From: an uncultured Candidatus Saccharibacteria bacterium
Lineage (GTDB): Bacteria; Patescibacteriota; Minisyncoccia; UBA6257; WO2-44-18
Direction of reading: 5' to 3'
Assembly (NCBI GenBank): GCA_964373675.1
Contig: CAYJVO010000003.1
Coordinates: forward strand, 1 to 51,505
DNA length: 51,505 nucleotides
Shown piece by piece: positions 1,854 through 26,764 of this stretch; position 1 is the stretch's first letter, and each line of letters begins with the position of its first letter. The notes under the pieces were generated by a model. The model had not been told where the DNA came from, ran no database searches, and worked only from the letters and a program-made list of their open reading frames with translations. The translations under genes were made by a program, and so were the position numbers.

Positions 1854-3248
1854 CTATTCAGGCATTTCTCGTACCCATATTATACTATGGGCGCTCGCCA
1901 GCAATATACCGATAATAAGCCACAGCATCAAGCGACCGGGTTGAAGAGTCCAAAGAAAATGATCAAAAAGACCAAAGACTAGCAACGATGACAACATGAC
2001 TATAACAATAACAGTTTGGACATTTTGGTTATTATAATTTTGAATTTGTTTAGAATTTAGAAATTTGACATTAGAAATTAACAAGCTAAGTAAAAATAAC
2101 AAAAACGCCGCGCCTCCTAAAATCCCGATCTCCGAACCAATTAGGATATAAATATTGTGTATCGGCTGCCATTGCCAGACCTCATTCATCCCAAACTGCT
2201 GATAGAAGCCGTTCTTAACCGATGATAAAACCTGATTACCGATTCCGATGCCTAGCGGGAATTTCTTTATGAGATCCCAACCCAGCTCGTTGTAATCCAG
2301 ACGTTGAACCAGCGCCGGCTCGCCCACCGAAACTTGAGCGCGGGAAAAAACGTAAGGGCTAAATGCGGCTAATAGCAAAGCGCCAATTGCTGACAGCGTT
2401 ATCAATAAACCGGCTGCCTGGCGACGACGCTCCTTTGCTGTCAAGGCGTAGCCAATAACCGCTAGCGTCGTCAATATAGCGATGGCCCAGGCGGTTCTGG
2501 AAAAAGTCAGTAAAAGACCGAGTGATATCAGGAAAATTCCGCTGGTCAGCGCTGTGGAATACGAATTTCGTACGAATATGTGAAAAATATTACCGCGGAT
2601 GGTTTCGTATATTTGTAATTTTTTCGTATTTCGTAGCCATAAATAGTACAACGCAAATAATCCGAGTAGTAAAAAGGCCGCTAGCACGTTCGGATGCGGT
2701 AAGGTGCCGTAAGCCCGCAAAATCGGCGCTCCTTCAACGATAATTTTCGCCGCTCCGCCGACCGTCGGCCCCAAAACCGATTCTCCTAGAATTCCCAGGC
2801 CCAAACTGGCTTGTCTGAAAAACTGCGCAATGCCAATTAATGATTGGAAAATCGCCGATGCGGCAATAACAGTAAAAATAGTTCTTACTCTCAAAACGCC
2901 GCCGCGGATCAACTGTCCAGTAGCGAGCGCAGTCAAAATCAGCAAGACCAACCGGACAAAATTATAAACCGCTAATCCCTTGGAATAAGCGAAGAGAATA
3001 GATGTAGCCGCGGATAGCAAAAAAACCGTTATAGCCATTCCGACGAAACTCATTCTTACGTTCTTAAGAACGTAAGAATGAGCGATGGAAAATAAAATCA
3101 AAAACGTTATAAGCAATACATCGCTTGCGTATAAAAATACCGCCTCGTATTCATGAAATCCAGTTGTGAATTGGCCAACCAAAACTCTTGTCCCAAAAGG
3201 GAGGGAAATCAGAAGGCCATACAAAGACCAGCGTGCCAGCCAAGACAT
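1854..3248 (-). CDS. O-antigen ligase (Wzy_C) family membrane protein
   Basis: Multi-TM protein with RAYGTLPHPN, TFSRTAW, GIGIGN and PIHNIYIL motifs; ATG at 3248 preferred over TTG at 3254. Confidence 0.85.
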   Translation of the reverse strand: MSWLARWSLYGLLISLPFGTRVLVGQFTTGFHEYEAVFLYASDVLLITFLILFSIAHSYVLKNVRMSFVGMAITVFLLSAATSILFAYSKGLAVYNFVRLVLLILTALATGQLIRGGVLRVRTIFTVIAASAIFQSLIGIAQFFRQASLGLGILGESVLGPTVGGAAKIIVEGAPILRAYGTLPHPNVLAAFLLLGLFALYYLWLRNTKKLQIYETIRGNIFHIFVRNSYSTALTSGIFLISLGLLLTFSRTAWAIAILTTLAVIGYALTAKERRRQAAGLLITLSAIGALLLAAFSPYVFSRAQVSVGEPALVQRLDYNELGWDLIKKFPLGIGIGNQVLSSVKNGFYQQFGMNEVWQWQPIHNIYILIGSEIGILGGAAFLLFLLSLLISNVKFLNSKQIQNYNNQNVQTVIVIVMLSSLLVFGLFDHFLWTLQPGRLMLWLIIGILLASAHSIIWVREMPE

Positions 3249-3262
3249 ACTCAAATTCTAAC

Positions 3263-3285: not shown

Positions 3286-3895
3286 AACGAATGACCTCTC
3301 TGGTAGGAACTACGAGATTGAACAAAGGTTGACTAGGATCAACAGTAAATCTGTTTTGTCCTGGATACCAGGTTACAACGGCATAATTCCACCAGGCATC
3401 CCTGGCATTAATGCAATGTGTGTACCCTCTGATGTCTAAGTGCTGGCCGGTTTCCAAAAAATACTTTAATTCAAACACTAACCGTTCCTCTAAAGTAATT
3501 ACCAATAATTTATTGGGGTTGTCTAAAGCTAGGGACAAGTCGGATTCAATATTGTCTTTGACCCAAACGGCGTAATTTTTGGAAAACTTGGGTTCAGGAA
3601 CAATAGCGTTCAAATCGGAGAATCTAGTAGTGACGATTTCCGACTTAGTGCTAATAACCTTCTCTATCCTGTTGAAAATTTGTTCCGACTTTAGTTCCGG
3701 AACGATAATCAGCAATCTATTATATCCTAACCGAGACTTCGGAATTCTTATAAAAGAAAAGCTGCGCTGAATCTCAAATTGCTCCTTATAAAATTTCTGC
3801 CATTCCCGAACTTCTTTTTCATAAGGATAATAACTGGAAACATCTCCGTGGGCTAAAAGGGGAAAGAGTAAAATAAGAGCGGTTAATATCCGCAT
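3284..3895 (-). CDS. Hypothetical exported protein
   Basis: 203-aa ORF with signal-peptide-like N terminus (MRILTALILLFPLLAHG). Confidence 0.65.
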   Translation of the reverse strand: MRILTALILLFPLLAHGDVSSYYPYEKEVREWQKFYKEQFEIQRSFSFIRIPKSRLGYNRLLIIVPELKSEQIFNRIEKVISTKSEIVTTRFSDLNAIVPEPKFSKNYAVWVKDNIESDLSLALDNPNKLLVITLEERLVFELKYFLETGQHLDIRGYTHCINARDAWWNYAVVTWYPGQNRFTVDPSQPLFNLVVPTREVIR

Positions 3896-3937
3896 TATCG
3901 CTCCCTTTCAAGTTTCTGCTTAAATTATAAGGGATTT

Positions 3938-4444
3938 TTAAAAAAAATCAACTGCGATCTCCACTACGTCGCTGGGCGCCCCAGAAAACCTTGTGGTTAT
4001 TATTACTCTATCAAAAACCTCTTTTATTTTTTTGGCCAATTTTTTGGCCAATTGATTTTCCGTGGTGGTCGCCTCCCAAACATCTCCTTTCTTTTTTATT
4101 TCTATTAATCGGTCCAGCGGATCGCGCTCAAAAGCTCGGTGGCAAAAATTGCGGATTAAACCGTCCAACTCGTCAGCGAATTTATCCGGCACGTTTTTTA
4201 TCACCACCCTGCCTTCGTATTGGCGATTTACAATCATCTGGCAAGCGGGGCAAATGGTAAAATGAATCGGCAAATCTTTATTGAAATTTTTTAACCCCTC
4301 CAGATCGTGATGCCACGATTTTTTAAAATAAGCGCTGGTGCATTTTTTGCATAAAACCAAACCCTTCTTGGCGCCAAATTCCTCAACTTCGTGCTGAGAC
4401 TTTGGCAACTTAATGTCGTAAGGTTTTTTAAAAATTTTAGCCAT
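3938..4444 (-). CDS. Conserved hypothetical protein with CxxC pairs (BCAM0308/NMD3-like)
   Basis: CKKC...W...CPAC...YEG...DPLDRLI...TTENQLA pattern; family assignment from memory, not searched. Confidence 0.55.
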   Translation of the reverse strand: MAKIFKKPYDIKLPKSQHEVEEFGAKKGLVLCKKCTSAYFKKSWHHDLEGLKNFNKDLPIHFTICPACQMIVNRQYEGRVVIKNVPDKFADELDGLIRNFCHRAFERDPLDRLIEIKKKGDVWEATTTENQLAKKLAKKIKEVFDRVIITTRFSGAPSDVVEIAVDFF

Positions 4445-5564
4445 AATTCACTACTCTTATTATTTCATACACTACCGCCGCCGCAAAGACCGAAAGCAAA
4501 AATATTGCTGTCGGAAGAGAAAATTTCAAACGCAAACCTTCTTGAATAACTACTTTTTTGGCTTTCAGCCACATCCAAACGATAAAAATTCCTTCTAAGC
4601 CCAAAAATATTCCTCCGGTAAAACTCACTAATTCTATAAAACTTTGGGAAATGAAAAAGTAAATAACTAAAGGTAGGCCAATTATTAAAACCGCCGCTAT
4701 CCAAAATGGAATTTTTAAATCCAATCGCATACTGTTTTTCACATCCAAACCAACCACGATGTAAGAACTGATAAGAGATAATATTCCCAGTAAACCAACC
4801 AATGCCAGCGCCCAATCCGGTATTTTTCCAAACAAACCGGAAACTGCGTCCTCGGAAACAAAATAAGTCAAGGACAAAATGCTTAATGAAAATGCCAAAT
4901 AGGCAATGGCGGAAACTGCTACCCCCAAAATGATGGATGCCTTAATAGCCCTCGGATTTTCGTAAAACCGAATTAAAGCTGGCATGGCCACCCTCCCTGA
5001 AAGAGCAAACAGCACCGGCGCCAGCGGCATCAAAATTTCCGGCCATAATGGCCGGAAATTTTGAGCTACTGCCCCGCTGAGACCGCTCATTCCAAAAACA
5101 AAAATCATAAATATGATTGCCAAAATACCCCCGCTGATCAAAAATTCTGCCAGCGCGATTCGTTTTAAACTGGCAAAAACCGCCAATGATCCTAATGCCC
5201 AAAAAATGAGCATCTTTACAACCGGATTGCCTGCCGCAAAGATCAAATTTCCGAAGCTCTGCGCCAAAATAAGGTAAATCGTCAAAACTAAAATCATCTC
5301 CGCAATCGTCATTAAAACGCTTAACCAAAATGCCCATCTTCCCAGATAAATTCTGGCATATCCGGCAAACCGATGATCTCCGATGGTCCGCAAAACTAAA
5401 TCCGCATACATCCAATAAGCAAAGATGTAAACGACGGAAGCCAAAATCAGATAAAAAATTCCGGTAGCGATGCCGGAATTTTTAAAAACAAAAGGCAAGG
5501 AAAACATTCCCGCCCCAATGATAGTCCCGATCAATAAGCCGGTTTGCAAAAAAAGCTTTGCCAT
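4437..5564 (-). CDS. Amino acid permease (aromatic amino acid/HAAAP-like)
   Basis: GTIIGAGMFSLP N-terminal APC-fold motif; about 11 TM segments. Confidence 0.85.
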   Translation of the reverse strand: MAKLFLQTGLLIGTIIGAGMFSLPFVFKNSGIATGIFYLILASVVYIFAYWMYADLVLRTIGDHRFAGYARIYLGRWAFWLSVLMTIAEMILVLTIYLILAQSFGNLIFAAGNPVVKMLIFWALGSLAVFASLKRIALAEFLISGGILAIIFMIFVFGMSGLSGAVAQNFRPLWPEILMPLAPVLFALSGRVAMPALIRFYENPRAIKASIILGVAVSAIAYLAFSLSILSLTYFVSEDAVSGLFGKIPDWALALVGLLGILSLISSYIVVGLDVKNSMRLDLKIPFWIAAVLIIGLPLVIYFFISQSFIELVSFTGGIFLGLEGIFIVWMWLKAKKVVIQEGLRLKFSLPTAIFLLSVFAAAVVYEIIRVVNYG

Positions 5565-7113: not shown

Positions 7114-8475
7114 TTAAAATTCATAGCTTTCTCCTTCTTCTGGCATCACCGTTTCCACCGCCAATTCATCCCTCAATTTCTGAGCTAACACTGTCATTGG
7201 TTTTTCTTCTCCCTGAACCAAAAAAGTTTTTTTCAATGAACCTCTCATCGGCCGAACCCAATCCAATAACTGCGGCTGGTCAGCGTGGGCCGAATAACCG
7301 CCAATGGCTTTCACCCGGCACTTCACTGGCACATCTTCGCCAAAAATTCTTACGCTTTCTGCTCCGTCCAAAATTTGACGCCCTAAAGAGCCCTTGGCTT
7401 GATAACCGATTATCAAAAGCGTGCTTTTGGAATCGGGCAAATAGCGGCGTTCATGGTGCAGAATCCGGCCGCCATGCGACATCCCAGAGCCAGCAATAAC
7501 CACTTTCGGCGGCGGGACCTCGTTGATCGCCTTAGACTGTTCGGTAGTCAAAGTCATTTTTAAGCCGGGGAAATTAAAAATGGAATCGCCGCGGCGAATC
7601 AACTCTTGGGTTTCTTTGTCAAAATACTGCGGGTATTTTTTATAAACCTCCGTCAGTTTTATCGCCAATGGACTGTCAACAAAAATCGGCACGCGGGGAA
7701 TCCGGCCGTTTTCCGAAAGATCGTTCAATTCAAACAGCAACTCTTGAGTGCGTTCCATCGCAAAAGCCGGAATCATCAGCGTTCCGCCGGCTTTTACCGT
7801 CTCCTCAATCAAATCTTCAACGATTTCTTTTCTTTTTTCGGTATCTTCGTGAACTCGGTCGCCATAGGTGGATTCCACTAGGCAATAATCAACATCGGCC
7901 GGCGGAACTTCCCGCGCGCCGATAATCGGTGCCGGAGAATTGCCTAAATCACCAGAAAACAAAACTTTTTTGCCTTCGGCTTCTATTTGGATAAAAGCCG
8001 ACCCTAAAATATGCCCGGCGTTATAAAAGGTTATTGTAAAATGTCCAATGTTAAATGGATTATGATATTCAACTGCTTCCCAATTAGCCATTAATTCTTC
8101 CACCTCTCTAATGCCGTAAAGCGAAGGTTTTTTCATTTTTTCCGCTTCCTGCATCAAAATGTGCTCTGAATCCATTAATAATTCCTTGGAAGCGTCCCGT
8201 GTCGGGGCAGTTGAATACACCTTGCCGCGAAATCCTTCTTTTACTAACTTCGGCAACCGACCGGTATGGTCAATGTGGGCGTGAGTAATAAAAACCGCCG
8301 CGATTTCTTTGGGATCATACGGAAATGGTTCCCAGTTATGTTTCTCACAAAAATTACTCCCCTGATGGAGTCCACAATCTATTAGAACCCTTGACACTTG
8401 ACCCTTGACACTTGACTCCAATAAATAGTTCGCCCCAGTCACCATTTTTGCCCCGCCATGAAATATCAGTTTCAC
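7114..8475 (-). CDS. MBL-fold beta-CASP ribonuclease (YSH1/CPSF73-like)
   Basis: THAHIDHTG, NAGHILGS, SGDLG, ESTYG, AGSGM, YSAHAD motifs. Confidence 0.93.
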   Translation of the reverse strand: MKLIFHGGAKMVTGANYLLESSVKGQVSRVLIDCGLHQGSNFCEKHNWEPFPYDPKEIAAVFITHAHIDHTGRLPKLVKEGFRGKVYSTAPTRDASKELLMDSEHILMQEAEKMKKPSLYGIREVEELMANWEAVEYHNPFNIGHFTITFYNAGHILGSAFIQIEAEGKKVLFSGDLGNSPAPIIGAREVPPADVDYCLVESTYGDRVHEDTEKRKEIVEDLIEETVKAGGTLMIPAFAMERTQELLFELNDLSENGRIPRVPIFVDSPLAIKLTEVYKKYPQYFDKETQELIRRGDSIFNFPGLKMTLTTEQSKAINEVPPPKVVIAGSGMSHGGRILHHERRYLPDSKSTLLIIGYQAKGSLGRQILDGAESVRIFGEDVPVKCRVKAIGGYSAHADQPQLLDWVRPMRGSLKKTFLVQGEEKPMTVLAQKLRDELAVETVMPEEGESYEF

Positions 8476-8508: not shown

Positions 8509-8538
8509 TCCAATACTCTCATTAATGAGAGTATTGGA
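8509..8538. repeat. Perfect 30-bp palindrome TCCAATACTCTCATTAATGAGAGTATTGGA
   Basis: Read directly; intergenic, about 20 nt upstream of the TATAAT of the beta-CASP gene. Confidence 0.9.
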
Positions 8539-11399: not shown

Positions 11400-11429
11400 C
11401 ATGCCACTATCGCATGCGATAGTGGCATG
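11400..11429. promoter_or_regulatory. Perfect 30-bp palindrome immediately upstream of TATAAT (candidate operator or cassette end)
   Basis: CATGCCACTATCGCATGCGATAGTGGCATG; TATAAT at 11431-11436; ATG at 11444. Confidence 0.75.
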
Positions 11430-11443
11430 TTATAATCCCCCGC

Positions 11444-11893
11444 ATGGACATATCGAAAATACTAAACAATAAACATCGAACGGAATGGGAAGAAGCGGTG
11501 TGGACAGAAATTGTTAATCATTTGGCGACGGCGAAATCTCAAAAAGATTTCAAACAAATTTTAGACAAACTATTAAGCGAAGATGAGAAGCGCATAATTG
11601 TAAATCGGGTAGCAGTTTTGGCGCTTGTAAAATCAGGAAAAAGTTATTCAGAAATCGGTAGTGCGCTTTGGGTTTCGCCGGTAACCATCAGTACTGTAAA
11701 GAAAAATTTCTGGGATAAATCCGGGCATTATAAAAGCTGCCGATCAATACCGAACAAAAAGAAAGGGTGGGGCGGCGGGATGGAAACCAAAACTAAAAAA
11801 TCTTTTTGGGACGAACTATTTAACAACATAGATCTGTGGGATTTAATTACAAATCCGCCTCGTCCACCAGGAATTGGTTTAAAAAACAAATAA
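11444..11893 (+). CDS. TrpR-like (YerC/YecD) HTH protein, paralog 1
   Basis: LLSEDEK.II..R.AV..L...GKSYSEIGSALWVSPVTISTV: TrpR-type HTH pattern. Confidence 0.8.
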   Translation: MDISKILNNKHRTEWEEAVWTEIVNHLATAKSQKDFKQILDKLLSEDEKRIIVNRVAVLALVKSGKSYSEIGSALWVSPVTISTVKKNFWDKSGHYKSCRSIPNKKKGWGGGMETKTKKSFWDELFNNIDLWDLITNPPRPPGIGLKNK

Positions 11894-11901
11894 CGGAACA
11901 A

Positions 11902-11929
11902 TCACCACTATCGCATGCGATAGTGGTGA
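11902..11929. repeat. Perfect 28-bp palindrome, second copy of the CCACTATCGCATGCGATAGTGG core
   Basis: TCACCACTATCGCATGCGATAGTGGTGA, 9 nt after the stop of paralog 1. Confidence 0.9.
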
Positions 11930-11947
11930 AGGAAATAAAAAACCGGC

Positions 11948-18995: not shown

Positions 18996-20333
18996 TTAGT
19001 GTTTTTCTAAATTCCCCCAATTTTCTCCGTAAGAAAAATCCACCTTCAAAAACACGGATAAATTATAAACCCCTTCCATAATTTCTTTAATTCTGGGTGC
19101 AACTTCTGTTAACAAATCCTTTTTGATTTCAAAAAGAAGTTCGTCGTGGATAGACAAAAGAAGCCGCGCTTCTTTTTGCCAGATTTTTCCCTGTTTTAGA
19201 AAATCTGTCACTTGGATCATTGCTAGTTTTATAATATCCGCCGCCAACCCCTGAATCGGCATATTGATCGCCGCCCGCTCAGCTTCCGCCGCCACCCGCC
19301 GATTTTCCGAAACGATGGCCGGCAGCCAACGCTTGCGGCCGTTCAAATTCTCCACATATCCAACCTCCCTTGCCTTATTAATCGTTTTTTCCTGCCAACG
19401 TTTTACTTCTGCAAAATCACTAAAATACTCGGCAATAAAATTCTCCGCCTCTTCACGGCTTAAACCTGTATTGCGAGCAAAAGCATCTGGCCCCATACCG
19501 TAAATAACGCCAAAATTCAAAGTTTTGGCAAAATGCCGTTGTTCTTTGGTAACTCTTTCCACCGGCATGTTAAAAACGTTAGCCGCCGTGATAGCGTGAA
19601 TGTCCAAATCTTTTTTGAATGCCTCAATCATTTTTGGATCCTTCGTCACTGAAGCAAGCACCCGCAATTCAATTTGGGAATAATCAAAAGAAACCAGAAG
19701 ATAGCTCTTTTCGGCGACAAAAACTTCCCGCACGCTTGGCGGCACATTCTGCAAATTGGGGTTTTGCGAGCTCAAACGGCCGGTGGCCGTACCGGTCTGC
19801 AAAAATTCCGTATGAATTCGGTTTCCTTTGTCCGTAGCGGCAAGTTCCTTCAGTGGTTCAATATAAGTTGATTTAATTTTAAAAAGCTCGCGGTATTTTA
19901 AAATTTTCTCTACTGCTGGATGGCGGTCCTTGATTTTCATCAACGCCTCCGCGTCCGTGGAAAATGAACCGGTTTTTCTTTTGGGGATGCCGCGAGTGTC
20001 TATTTTTAATTTCTCAAACAAAACTTCCGAAAGCTGTTTTGGCGAATTTAAATTAAATGGGAAACCAGCCAAGTCGTAAATTTTCTTCTCCAAACCAGCT
20101 AATTCTTTTGCCAAATCTTTGGACATCTTTTTCAAAAGCTTCGGGTCGGCCTTAATGCCGGTCTTCCGCATTTCTTCCAAAATCGGGATTAGCGGCAGTT
20201 CAATCTCGCGATAAATTTTTTCCAGCCCTTCTTCTTTCAATTTCTTCTCCAAAACTTCCGGCGAATCAGCCTTAACCAGGCCCGGCGCATCGGAATTCAA
20301 AAGCCATCGCGCGATTTCTATTTTAGTTATCAT
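18996..20333 (-). CDS. polA: DNA polymerase I, polymerase domain only
   Basis: TGRLSSQNPNLQN, DYSQIELR, AK.LNFG..YG, N.PIQG.AAD, HDEL. Confidence 0.93.
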   Translation of the reverse strand: MITKIEIARWLLNSDAPGLVKADSPEVLEKKLKEEGLEKIYREIELPLIPILEEMRKTGIKADPKLLKKMSKDLAKELAGLEKKIYDLAGFPFNLNSPKQLSEVLFEKLKIDTRGIPKRKTGSFSTDAEALMKIKDRHPAVEKILKYRELFKIKSTYIEPLKELAATDKGNRIHTEFLQTGTATGRLSSQNPNLQNVPPSVREVFVAEKSYLLVSFDYSQIELRVLASVTKDPKMIEAFKKDLDIHAITAANVFNMPVERVTKEQRHFAKTLNFGVIYGMGPDAFARNTGLSREEAENFIAEYFSDFAEVKRWQEKTINKAREVGYVENLNGRKRWLPAIVSENRRVAAEAERAAINMPIQGLAADIIKLAMIQVTDFLKQGKIWQKEARLLLSIHDELLFEIKKDLLTEVAPRIKEIMEGVYNLSVFLKVDFSYGENWGNLEKH

Positions 20334-20352: not shown

Positions 20353-20372
20353 CGTTTTGACGCGTCAAAACG
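20353..20372. repeat. Perfect 20-bp palindrome CGTTTTGACGCGTCAAAACG, downstream of TrpR-like paralog 2
   Basis: Read directly; 6 nt beyond the stop at 20379. Confidence 0.9.
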
Positions 20373-20378
20373 TTCCAG

Positions 20379-20843
20379 TTATGCGCGGCCGTTTTTAAGG
20401 CCCATTCCCGAGGGCCTGGGCGGATTTTTAAAAATTTCCCAAATATCAATATCGCCCAACAATTCTTCAAAAAGCGGCTTCTTACTTACGGTAATTGGTA
20501 AGGCCTTCTCCTTTTTAAGTTTTTTGAAGAAACGCTGGCTTCTGTAAATACCGGGGCTATTAAAAAAATTCTTTTTAAGAGCGCTGATGGTCGCTGGCGA
20601 CATCCACAAAATCCGACTAATTTCTCTGGGTCCTTTACCAGAACGCATCAATGCCACCGCCGCCAATCTTTTGGTTATTATTGATTTCTCGTACTCGCTA
20701 AACAACACATCAATAATCCTGCCTGTTTCTTGTTTGGTTTTAGTTCGGGCCAATTTTTCTAAAAATCTGTTCCACAAAAATTCCCGCCATTCAATCCTGT
20801 GTCGGCTCTGAAAATCTTCAACTTTTTCATTGGTTTTATTCAT
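20379..20843 (-). CDS. TrpR-like (YerC/YecD) HTH protein, paralog 2
   Basis: Aligns by eye with paralog 1 (HR.EW, SE.EK.II, SP.TIS, NPPRP.G.GLKN); ATG 20843 preferred. Confidence 0.8.
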   Translation of the reverse strand: MNKTNEKVEDFQSRHRIEWREFLWNRFLEKLARTKTKQETGRIIDVLFSEYEKSIITKRLAAVALMRSGKGPREISRILWMSPATISALKKNFFNSPGIYRSQRFFKKLKKEKALPITVSKKPLFEELLGDIDIWEIFKNPPRPSGMGLKNGRA

Positions 20844-20862
20844 AGTTATAACATTATACATC

Positions 20863-20886
20863 ACCGTTTTGACGCGTCAAAACGGT
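20863..20886. promoter_or_regulatory. Perfect 24-bp palindrome upstream of TATAAT (candidate operator or cassette end)
   Basis: ACCGTTTTGACGCGTCAAAACGGT; minus-strand TATAAT at 20858-20853. Confidence 0.75.
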
Positions 20887-20913
20887 AGTTAAAAAATTGG
20901 GAACGGTCCCCCC

Positions 20914-21816
20914 TCATTTATTTAGACGCTCCAACAGACTCTTAAAACCCAATTTTTGGAAATATTCCGCCAATTTTTCTTTATTCAGCTCCCCCGCCGA
21001 AAGCGAAGCGAGATCGCTGACGGCGATTGGGGCGTCGCGGCGGATGAAGGCTAGTTTTTTGGACATTAAAGCGATTTCTTTTTGCCCTTCCAGTTTTTTG
21101 GAAATTTTTTCCGGAATGATGCCAATGCTCGCGAAAACTTCTTCAAGGTTGCCGTATTCTTTTAAAAGCGGCTGGGCGGTTTTAGGCCCCACTCCCTTGA
21201 TGCCCGGGATGTTGTCGGAAACATCCCCCACCATTCCTTTGTAGTCCGCAAGCTGATTCGGTTTGAGTCCATACTTTTCTTCTACTCCTTTTTCGTCATA
21301 AATTACGGTTTCGGAAAGGCCAGTTTTTACAATTTGAGCCAATACTTTTTCATCGCGCACGAGCTGCAGCAAATCATTATCGCCAGAGAGAATCACTACT
21401 TTTAAATCCGAGCCATCTTGTGGTGAGCCTGTCGAACCACCAAATTGCTCCGCAAGCGTCCCGATAATATCGTCGGCTTCAAAACCCGGCACGTCAAAAG
21501 TTTTGACACCAAATGCCTCAAAAACATCTCGGGCCTTAATAATTTGCGGCACTAAATCATCGGCAGTCGGCGGCCGGTGAATTTTGTATTCTTTGAAAAT
21601 TTCATCGCGAAAAGTCGGCTCGGGACGGTCAAACGCGGCGGCGGCATAATCAGGTTTTTGTTCACGAAAAACTTTCAACAAAATTCCGCAAAGTCCGTAA
21701 ATCGCCCCGATCGGCTGGCCATCCGGCGTCGTCAAAGGCGGAAGCGCGTGAAAAAACCGATGAATCAACGCATTGGCGTCAATAAGTAATAAAACGTTCG
21801 TTTTCTTTTCTGCCAT
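20914..21816 (-). CDS. 5'-3' exonuclease (stand-alone PolA N-terminal domain)
   Basis: LIDANALIHR, AFD, EADDIIG, SGDND, GD.SDNIPGIKGVGPKTA. Confidence 0.93.
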   Translation of the reverse strand: MAEKKTNVLLLIDANALIHRFFHALPPLTTPDGQPIGAIYGLCGILLKVFREQKPDYAAAAFDRPEPTFRDEIFKEYKIHRPPTADDLVPQIIKARDVFEAFGVKTFDVPGFEADDIIGTLAEQFGGSTGSPQDGSDLKVVILSGDNDLLQLVRDEKVLAQIVKTGLSETVIYDEKGVEEKYGLKPNQLADYKGMVGDVSDNIPGIKGVGPKTAQPLLKEYGNLEEVFASIGIIPEKISKKLEGQKEIALMSKKLAFIRRDAPIAVSDLASLSAGELNKEKLAEYFQKLGFKSLLERLNK

Positions 21817-26198: not shown

Positions 26199-26209
26199 AA
26201 GCTAAAGCT

Positions 26210-26764
26210 ATGGCCGGACATAGTCATTGGAAACAAATCAAAGCGCAAAAAGGCGCGGCGGATAAAAAGAAAAGCGCGGTTTTTTCAAAACTCTTAAATG
26301 CCATTTCCGTAGCGGCGCGACAAGAATCTAATCCGGCATTTAATCCGCGCCTGCGTTCAGCAATGGAAAAAGCCAAAGACAATAAAATTCCGCAAGAAAA
26401 CATAGAGCGAGCCATCGGCAAGGCATCGAAAAATAAAAACTTGGAAGAAATCATTATTGAAGCTTACGGTCCGGAAAAAACGGCCTTGATTATTGAAGCG
26501 ATAACTGACAATAAAAACCGGACTATTGCGGAAATCCGGCATCTTTTAGACGCAAATAAGGCAAAGATGGCCGATCCAGGAAGCGTTTTATGGGCTTTTG
26601 ATCCGCCAGCCCCGCAGACTACGAAGCAAACTAGTGGAGGCGGAGAGTGGAAAGCCAAATTTCCTCAGCAAATATCCGACGAAGGAAAAAGGAAGTTGCA
26701 AATAATTATAGAAAAACTGGAAGAACATAATGATGTGCAATGCGTTATAACAAATAGCCAATAG
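26210..26764 (+). CDS. yebC: YebC/PmpR family protein (short form)
   Basis: MAGHSHWKQIK, NPRLR, AK.NKIP..NIERAI, YGP, TDNKNRT..EIR, LE..NDVQ.V. Confidence 0.92.
   Translation: MAGHSHWKQIKAQKGAADKKKSAVFSKLLNAISVAARQESNPAFNPRLRSAMEKAKDNKIPQENIERAIGKASKNKNLEEIIIEAYGPEKTALIIEAITDNKNRTIAEIRHLLDANKAKMADPGSVLWAFDPPAPQTTKQTSGGGEWKAKFPQQISDEGKRKLQIIIEKLEEHNDVQCVITNSQ

Follow-up and report, generated by a model that had tools for sequence, protein, structure and literature searches.

A TrpR-like gene bracketed by two copies of one palindrome at a split polA junction: a putative self-flanked repressor/operator cassette of Patescibacteria

Introduction

Escherichia coli TrpR is a small, all-helical dimeric repressor whose targets include its own gene, and its dimers can occupy operators in tandem. 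Repressor-operator looping is a feature of lambda CI, which acts between OR and OL, and of the auxiliary operators of lac, gal and deo, and the C proteins of restriction-modification systems are small helix-turn-helix autoregulators whose palindromic boxes abut a leaderless promoter and which form non-cross-reacting specificity groups. The TrpR-family regulators TrpR and HisR/YerC bind 20-bp palindromic operators with a lineage-specific consensus (PMC9413887). Here we analyse a stretch of 51,505 bp (hereafter the window) from contig CAYJVO010000003.1 of an uncultured Candidatus Saccharibacteria bacterium, in which a gene for a TrpR-like protein, gene B, is bracketed by two copies of one palindrome and lies between the halves of a split DNA polymerase I (polA) gene. 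We consider it reasonably probable, judging from the sequence, that gene B encodes an autoregulated TrpR-family repressor with two putative operators flanking its own gene. Together with a paralog in the same window, gene A, and with relatives in other genomes, it belongs to what we interpret as a Patescibacteria-specific TrpR subfamily organised as self-bracketed repressor/operator cassettes, an assignment that is sound as to the family and putative as to the repressor and operator roles. Literature searches for this family or its layout in Patescibacteria found nothing. Patescibacteria have tiny genomes with few recognisable regulators and an almost unstudied transcription control, and the cassette would represent a compact unit of such control.

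The cassettes resemble TrpR and HisR/YerC in the fold and family signature of their proteins and in the length of the core that the two palindromes of a cassette share, 16-26 bp as compared with the known 20-bp operators, and their sites of 36-42 bp consist of two mirror-image 18-20-bp sites, a likeness to the tandem binding of TrpR dimers. Unlike TrpR and HisR/YerC, the family has a C-terminal extension of ~55 residues with the motifs YKSxR and D[IL]W[ED]L..NPPRPxGxG[LI]K, its genes do not lie beside amino-acid biosynthesis operons (except for aroK/thrC at two loci, L001 and L014), there is a second putative operator at the 3' end of the gene, several paralogs occur per genome, and the family is restricted to Parcubacteria/Patescibacteria-type genomes. 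The likeness to lambda CI and to the lac, gal and deo systems lies in the possible mode of action and not in the family: operator copies are found on both sides of or within a unit, a few hundred bp apart, with the repressor gene inside the potential loop, but the protein family is another one, the loop would enclose the repressor gene only and the oligomerisation domain is putative. With the C proteins the cassettes share a small helix-turn-helix protein, palindromes abutting a leaderless-type promoter and a diversification of protein and box; however, C proteins have an Xre-type fold and lack a downstream copy of the box. No restriction or methylase gene was present beside a cassette in any locus, the neighbours being polA halves, comEC halves, metG/tatD, aroK/thrC, rpsL and Band_7 genes. 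Finally, a unit of ~0.55 kb with one open reading frame (ORF) of ~150 amino acids, with palindromes at its ends, which in some genomes is found between the halves of split genes (polA, comEC) and in others is missing there, recalls IS200-type insertion sequences and free-standing homing-endonuclease genes, although the cassette has neither an HUH/Y1 nor a nuclease domain, the gene splits pre-date it and there is no sign of recent transposition.

Results

There are exactly two copies of the 20-mer perfect palindrome CGTTTTGACGCGTCAAAACG in the window (20353-20372 and 20865-20884); allowing up to three mismatches gave no others in the window, and 100 shuffles yielded 0 matches. The upstream copy sits inside a 24-bp perfect palindrome, ACCGTTTTGACGCGTCAAAACGGT (20863-20886), which is the proposed operator O1, and the downstream copy (20353..20372) is the proposed operator O2, both lying in the letters where a preliminary description of this DNA had placed them. 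Read on the minus strand, O1 is followed by GATG, the -10 box TATAAT (20858-20853), 9 nt, the ATG (20843), an ORF of 154 codons (gene B, 20379..20843) that ends in a stop codon at 20381-20379, and then by 6 nt, O2, 19 nt and the ATG of the polymerase gene. Within O1 lies the -35 hexamer TTGACG (20880-20875, minus strand), 16 bp from the -10 box (20853..20858), so that the promoter, TTGACG-16-TATAAT, is near-consensus with 11 of 12 matches in a consensus scan. The 9 nt between TATAAT and ATG, a spacing also found in the orthologs L001 and L014, hold no Shine-Dalgarno sequence, and the B mRNA, with its start predicted 1-3 nt ahead of the ATG, would be leaderless or nearly so.

Upstream of the cassette lies the gene for the 5'-3' exonuclease, the upstream half of the split DNA polymerase I (20914..21816, minus strand, 300 amino acids; Pfam 5_3_exonuc_N and 5_3_exonuc), whose stop codon is directly followed by a terminator-like hairpin, GGGGGGACCGTTCCC and then AATTTTTT (20899..20913, minus strand). 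Downstream lies a stand-alone family-A DNA polymerase domain gene (18996..20333, minus strand, 445 amino acids; Pfam DNA_pol_A) that lacks a 3'-5' exonuclease domain. The consensus scan recognised no separate promoter for this gene, and no -10 box is present at promoter spacing after O2. Because the exonuclease gene has a terminator-like hairpin of its own and the polymerase gene is devoid of a recognisable promoter, the polymerase half is probably co-transcribed from the B promoter and hence would be under the control of B. As RNA, O2 would form a weak hairpin (z -0.97) without a T-run, and the only Rfam match in the window was a tRNA at 1707-1778, with no known RNA family at the palindromes. 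Chance, which the preliminary description had thought an unlikely source of the palindrome pair, was rejected as its origin, since the 20-mer stands only at the two flanks, is absent from the shuffles and is part of a layout that recurs in homologs.

Both proteins pass the gathering cutoff of 27 bits for Pfam PF01371 (Trp_repressor), B just so with 28.8 bits and A with 42.8 bits, and this result, together with the fold match of B, justifies their earlier designation as TrpR-like. Neither reached the cutoff of the NCBIfam equivalogs for TrpR proper (TIGR01321, cutoff 67.25; B 17.7 and A 24.0 bits) or for YerC/YecD-HisR (TIGR02531, cutoff 42.2; A 21.1 bits, B no match), and they therefore constitute a separate subfamily. 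B was modelled with AlphaFold2 from an alignment of 13 sequences. In the model a helical domain of the TrpR type extends over residues about 16-95 (block-mean predicted local distance difference test score 84-92), with the recognition helix SPATISALKKN inside its helix-turn-helix, and the tail (residues 100-154) has low model confidence except for a short helix, DIWEIF, ahead of NPPRPsGmGLKN. When this model was compared with the PDB using Foldseek, ranks 1-38 were all TrpR or TrpR-like (target TM-score 0.62-0.72, E about 0.02-0.3), the best match having a root-mean-square deviation of about 2.3 A over 82 residues. The model superposes on E. coli TrpR; its all-helical fold is of the TrpR type, helices D and E making up the helix-turn-helix.

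An exhaustive profile search retrieved 1,044 cluster representatives at E <= 1e-3. Among the best 150 of these, the NPPRP tail is present in no more than about a dozen outside the query family, and other short C-terminal motifs (GRGRWKFLN, RRTKYG, KGIGVxGD) are found as well. The named sources of homologs are Parcubacteria and 'Saccharibacteria' metagenome-assembled genomes (MAGs), and searches of viral contigs, phage records and plasmid records yielded none; for defence or phage families there were no PADLOC matches and only marginal PHROGs matches (E about 0.006-0.008). An identity as a transposase, nuclease, defence or phage protein was discarded on these grounds and because Pfam gave only Trp_repressor and sub-threshold helix-turn-helix matches and Foldseek only TrpR. 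Two further matches were set aside: the top PDB sequence match, 8vd6 'CAP REPEAT', is a de novo designed repeat protein (PMC12339374), and a similarity to the Pax-6 paired domain (E 0.076) is a generic helix-turn-helix resemblance.

Gene A (11444..11893, plus strand, 149 amino acids), whose product is 44% identical to B (E 2e-42), is arranged in the same way, with a palindrome unrelated to that of B. A 30-bp perfect palindrome, CATGCCACTATCGCATGCGATAGTGGCATG (11400..11429), abuts an extended -10 box, TGtTATAAT (11428-11436, plus strand), that is followed by 7 nt and the ATG, and a 28-bp perfect palindrome, TCACCACTATCGCATGCGATAGTGGTGA (11902..11929), starts 8 nt past the stop codon. The two have a 22-bp core, CCACTATCGCATGCGATAGTGG, in common and as hairpins would be very stable (-19 to -22 kcal/mol, z about -5.6 to -6). 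The preliminary description had presented A and B as paralogs with a single layout (palindrome, -10 box, ATG, stop, palindrome), with HR.EW, the helix-turn-helix and NPPRP.G.GLKN in common and with different recognition helices, SPVTISTV in A and SPATISAL in B, all of which we found to be correct. Compared with its relative at locus L020, cassette A is 90.6% identical in both protein and DNA, with a synonymous divergence (dS) of 0.375, whereas the eight genes flanking it in the syntenic L020 are 49-80% identical (dS 1.5 to saturated); the block of high identity spans palindrome to palindrome (11403-11947). L020 also has a tandem duplication with a 76-bp period that comprises the palindrome, the -10 box and the first codons of the A-type gene (3866-3998), and an extra copy of the palindrome at the 5' end of an archease homolog (4969-4990).

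Thirty loci encoding relatives were fetched (numbered L001 onwards), and after removal of duplicates about 20 distinct cassettes were left. The layout of palindrome, -10 box, ATG, stop and palindrome is present in about 20 non-redundant homologs, and the independent repetition that the preliminary description had seen in two genes thus extends well beyond them. An upstream palindrome was found in almost all cassettes; it is 18-42 bp long, has no loop or a 2-nt loop and, in 18 homologs, ends 12-26 nt before the ATG, far enough away for a -10 box to fit in between, and in about 18 homologs the proposed operator overlaps the -35/spacer region of the gene's own promoter. The second palindrome, likewise found in almost all cassettes, starts between -42 and +20 nt relative to the stop codon of the TrpR-like gene and is present with a co-directional as well as with a convergent next gene. 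Beyond the shared core of 16-26 bp the outer arms of the two copies are unlike, yet each copy remains perfectly symmetric, as in L002 with CATATTCCC-core-GGGAATATG upstream versus ACTCCT-core-AGGAGT downstream. In total, 115 symmetric outer base pairs lie past the shared cores, and a 1-bp indel between the palindromes of L012 and L002 is present in both arms. In every cassette the downstream site carries the boxes of the upstream site, and it changes in parallel with it between orthologs. The downstream copy is thus a putative protein site, because its boxes are shared and co-varying, it is present whatever follows, and the B copy makes a poor hairpin without a T-run. Extra upstream sites occur in L001, L014, L020 and L003 (two each) and in L022 (three), and L026 has three downstream sites; such copies would be typical of cooperative operator arrays.

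Several of these loci have peculiarities of their own. In L022 the three upstream palindrome copies are in tandem (3761-3901), with more copies downstream. L005 has an 88-bp bracketing repeat with one and the same sequence before and after the gene (4831-4918 and 5412-5499; L029 is identical), which consists of 18-bp arms, CTTTCACGCGTAAAAGAA and TTCTTTTACGCGTGAAAG, around a spacer of ~50 bp with a small hairpin of its own. In L010 (3890-3957, 4451-4473) the downstream site, GTGTATTGACGCGTCAGCAC, reads as a hybrid of two upstream palindromes, with the left half of GTATTGACG|CGTCAATAC and the right half of GTGCTGACG|TGTCAGCAC, which a crossover at the palindrome centre would yield. Besides its B-type cassette, L001 has part of a second TrpR-like paralog at the contig edge (3-275, minus strand), ~1 kb away from the cassette.

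The proteins fall into three clades, which differ in what their palindromes retain. The B clade keeps the palindrome centre TGACGCGTCA, with one-base variants in L009, L013 and L018, whereas the three to five positions beyond this centre vary. The A clade (gene A of the window, L020, L024) and a third clade (L003-L006, L022, L025, L026, L028, L037) keep CTAT-N8-ATAG, often as two mirror-image units of 18-20 bp that make up a 36-42-bp palindrome; within the third clade L005 is an exception, with TCACGCGTAA-type boxes in its 88-bp repeat. As the proximal upstream site of L003 has kept its GCTAT/ATAG boxes despite asymmetric spacers, the boxes look like a selected element, as would be expected if the protein reads them. 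The proposal of the preliminary description that each paralog has a private palindrome is therefore right in that the two copies match each other and differ between paralogs, with five paralogs and five different palindromes in a single MAG (CAYIBZ01, L002-L006), but it goes too far in that the boxes are invariant across a clade and only spacer and flank positions vary. In the window, CTAT-N8-ATAG has 4 matches where 0.37 are expected, the extra ones lying at 26208-26223, overlapping the ATG of an ORF (26210..26764), and at 11816-11831, inside gene A in the region coding for ELFNNIDLW. No further site of the B palindrome was found in the window or in the fetched loci.

Within the B clade, the two residues after Ser in S-x-x-T-I-S vary along with the operator (PA with AAAAC, TG with AAGAC, TA with AATAC, WS with GAGGT, RN with TACCA), and in the other clades V occurs with CTAT-C[G/T], Q with CTAT-GA/T and N with CTAT-CA. 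The covariation of recognition helix and palindrome, for which a test had been suggested, is thus visible, in that the variable operator positions go with the residue pair behind Ser, but the classes coincide with phylogenetic clades; therefore the number of independent events is small, there is no demonstrated code, and the covariation is suggestive. Likewise, of the idea of diversifying protein/palindrome pairs, the matched pairs that differ between paralogs stand, with the suggestive covariation, whereas the palindromes are only partly private and the covariation is not independent evidence.

The synteny comparison at the polA locus, which the preliminary description had named as a check, was run on 11 related genomes and revealed a patchy occupancy of the exonuclease|polymerase junction by different TrpR-like lineages. 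In six of the genomes (L031, L032, L033, L035, L039, L040) the junction is empty, the gaps ranging from an overlap to 100 bp, in four it is occupied by TrpR-like genes of three lineages, and in one by an unrelated gene. The window has a B-type cassette, L028 and L037 have a third-clade cassette with the palindrome CACTGCTATCACGCGTGATAGCAGTG on each side, and L036 (1734-3000) has, in a spacer of ~1.27 kb, a more distant TrpR-like gene without the NPPRP tail. Around the latter gene lie about nine GCTTTCCCTTGGGAAAGC-type repeats, an inverted repeat of the GCTTTCCC-TT-GGGAAAGC type, with longer repeated segments on each side. In the junction of L038 (2004-2500), an unrelated ORF of 129 amino acids that contains HExxH is accompanied by a solo CTATGACGCGTCATAG ~70 nt before the polymerase gene. 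This solo site may have been left behind by a cassette since lost, or it may be the operator of a regulator whose gene lies elsewhere. On the polymerase tree, genomes with an occupied junction and those with an empty one are intermixed, and between L028 and the window the flanking genes are 62-74% identical, whereas the junction occupants are only 39.5% identical and have no DNA similarity. The genome that carries L020 also has, in L034/L035 (86-532), a second, partial gene for a 5'-3' exonuclease N-terminal domain (148 amino acids) ~1.6 kb upstream of the full exonuclease gene.

The best homologs of the polymerase gene are 429-525 amino acids long in 120 of 120 cases. ComEC is likewise split, into a Competence-domain gene and a metallo-beta-lactamase gene, and the splits of polA and comEC are both the norm in this Parcubacteria clade. 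A causal role of the cassette in these splits was dismissed, since stand-alone polymerase and Competence genes are the norm and cassette-free junctions are common. In L002, L012, L016 and L043 a B-clade cassette separates the stand-alone Competence gene from its metallo-beta-lactamase partner; four lineages thus have a cassette at this junction, whereas L041 and L042 have none. Elsewhere, cassettes stand at metG|tatD, upstream of aroK-thrC, at M50 peptidase|rpsL, between two Band_7 genes and beside an IS30-like gene. In four further syntenic pairs, the conservation of the cassette protein is similar to that of the neighbouring genes, which points to a resident gene with vertical inheritance in these pairs, and closely related cassettes are always in the same genomic context. 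Because of these two findings, we take the cassettes to be stable residents for the most part; where one is occasionally gained, lost or replaced, the change is confined to the cassette.

Discussion

We propose that a dimer of B would bind the palindrome directly upstream of its own -10 box and, by covering the -35 hexamer inside that palindrome, would exclude RNA polymerase from the strong promoter of a leaderless or near-leaderless transcript. B would also bind the second operator copy at the 3' end of its gene. Such binding might loop the ~500-bp gene and thereby tighten autorepression, perhaps with the conserved C-terminal helix/NPPRP tail as the dimer-dimer contact, or the downstream-bound B might act as a roadblock that meters read-through into the next gene. 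The gene, its promoter and both putative operators behave as one compact cassette, in which operator spacers and flanks diverge along with the protein, and as a unit it comes, goes or is exchanged at a small number of tight junctions between genes. Template switching is documented in E. coli and yeast to homogenise and expand inverted repeats (PMC7202029, PMC8604942, PMC13100816). Acting on a selected dimer-binding core, it could produce both the exact symmetry and the variable length of the palindromes as a mutational by-product. The exact, individually extended symmetry seems to be best explained in this way because the outer arms differ and are nevertheless symmetric, the indel between L012 and L002 is symmetric, and the window contains unrelated long palindromes.

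Several observations weigh against an autoregulated repressor as we picture it. To our knowledge, TrpR proteins are not known to loop DNA, and the C-terminal tail that might provide the contact was modelled at low confidence. The spacing of the paired operators, measured centre to centre, shows no convincing helical phasing (Rayleigh p 0.03-0.3 by the helical period assumed, from data that are non-independent). The B-clade gene of L002 (5001-5423, identical in L015) has an in-frame deletion of 11 residues that removes the turn and the recognition helix, yet the perfect palindromes of 38 and 32 bp have been kept. In addition, neither the A nor the B palindrome occurs within the 51.5 kb except around its own gene, and a regulator with no visible targets beyond its own flanks seems to be selfish more than useful. 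Finally, the patchy distribution and the cassette-limited high identity of A are not what a plain housekeeping regulator would predict.

Some of these observations would fit a minimal mobile or selfish cassette, in which the palindromes would mark where a horizontally exchanged unit ends, as sites of recombination or insertion that might be recognised in hairpin or cruciform form, the TrpR-like protein would be a site-recognition or maintenance factor, and autoregulation would be secondary; we regard this as unlikely, and as compatible with autoregulation. That different cassettes are present or absent at the same junctions, with the polA junction empty in six of 11 genomes and held by three TrpR-like lineages in four that are interleaved on the tree, and the comEC junction occupied in four lineages and empty in two, and that A is far more conserved than its flanks (dS 0.375 against 1.5 to saturated), raise the possibility that regulator/operator units move as modules between genomes. 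The low identity of the L028 occupant to B next to well-conserved flanks points the same way, as do the symmetry of each copy past the shared core, which a hairpin-recognised site would have, the hybrid-like downstream site of L010 and a weak, sub-threshold similarity of the protein to transposase and paired-domain helix-turn-helix domains. However, the 150 amino acids comprise a TrpR fold and a low-confidence tail without a catalytic domain, and neither Pfam nor the fold search of the cassette protein detected an encoded transposase (HUH/Y1, DDE, serine or tyrosine recombinase). In the fetched loci no transposase, integrase or nuclease is consistently nearby, and there are no near-identical copies at different sites, no target-site duplications and no flanking direct repeats besides the palindromes. 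Nor are there hybrid att-like arms: the flanks are self-symmetric through private outer arms, unlike the crossover product of two different sites, and with no recombinase consistently adjacent we rejected att- or dif-like recombination sites, the downstream site of L010 being a possible exception. Close relatives share their context and are usually as similar as their neighbours, so that movement, if any, is rare, and viral contigs, phage and plasmid records, PHROGs and PADLOC yielded no homologs. In its strongest form, the cassettes would be self-contained, horizontally exchangeable regulator-plus-operator units, a previously undescribed kind of minimal, enzyme-less selfish element of Patescibacteria with palindromes that serve as operators and exchange boundaries, which would again and again colonise tight junctions of paired essential genes (split polA, split comEC, metG|tatD) and take over the transcription of the downstream partner, hence being hard to lose; this we consider rather doubtful.

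The remaining alternatives concern the palindromes themselves. They might mainly be RNA or DNA hairpin structures that insulate the gene, by ending transcription of the gene upstream and by stabilising or terminating the transcript at its 3' end, and for this speak the exact symmetry, which runs past any plausible protein contact, the high stability of the A hairpins and the downstream copy of L028, which stands between A and T runs like a bidirectional terminator. The upstream copy, however, precedes the predicted transcription start and would thus lie outside the gene's own mRNA, most downstream copies have no T-run, with ordinary GC-stem and T-run terminators in use elsewhere in the genome, and the downstream palindrome of B has no significant hairpin. 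As a hairpin role would explain neither the use of one sequence in both copies nor the clade-wide boxes with varying paired spacers, we consider it very unlikely, and intrinsic termination was rejected as the main role. Alternatively, only the upstream site might be an ordinary operator, the downstream copy belonging to the operator or promoter of the next gene, so that B would be a local regulator of the polymerase gene and there would be no bracketing as such. A co-directional gene does start ~10-60 nt from the downstream palindrome in B, L028, L037, L002, L012, L016, L001, L014 and L010, and the solo CTATGACGCGTCATAG of L038 lies upstream of the polymerase gene in a spacer without a TrpR-like gene. 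We nonetheless think this quite unlikely, given that what comes after the downstream palindrome in A, L020, L024, L025 and L022 is no co-directional gene but a convergent one or a terminator, that no -10 box stands at promoter spacing after the downstream palindrome of B, and that the position of the site is tied to the stop codon of the TrpR-like gene and not to the next start codon.

The autoregulatory cassette that we favour would consist of a TrpR-type protein of ~150 amino acids, a consensus leaderless-type promoter and two copies of a defined putative operator, in about 20 natural variants with several mutually distinct pairs in one genome. If the proteins do bind these sites, the variants would represent a natural series for the study of how helix-turn-helix specificity and operators co-diverge without cross-talk, and a source of small orthogonal repressor/operator pairs.

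Other long palindromes in the window

Perfect palindromes with no loop and arms of at least 8 bp number eight in the window, as against 0.9 expected from shuffles (maximum 4), and four of the eight are those of cassettes A and B. Exact extended palindromes, some of them within coding genes, suggest that template-switch mutagenesis is unusually active in this lineage. Two membrane-protein ORFs that are apparently real (1854..3254 and 4437..5564, minus strand) each contain a long palindrome: a 34-bp perfect palindrome, CTCATTCTTACGTTCTTAAGAACGTAAGAATGAG (3049-3082), which encodes HSYVLKNVRMS, and a 35-bp palindrome with a 1-nt centre, TCAAAATTTCCGGCCATAATGGCCGGAAATTTTGA (5030-5064), which encodes QNFRPLWPEIL. 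Coding palindromes of such length are unusual and would fit active template-switch mutagenesis. Another perfect palindrome, of 30 bp, TCCAATACTCTCATTAATGAGAGTATTGGA (8509-8538), is located ~20 bp upstream of TGTTATAAT, which is followed by 7 nt and a GTG start codon, the same leaderless-type promoter layout; the gene behind it (7114..8475) is metallo-beta-lactamase/beta-CASP-like, and TCCAATACTCTCATTAATGAGAGTATTGGA is a likely operator for some other regulator.

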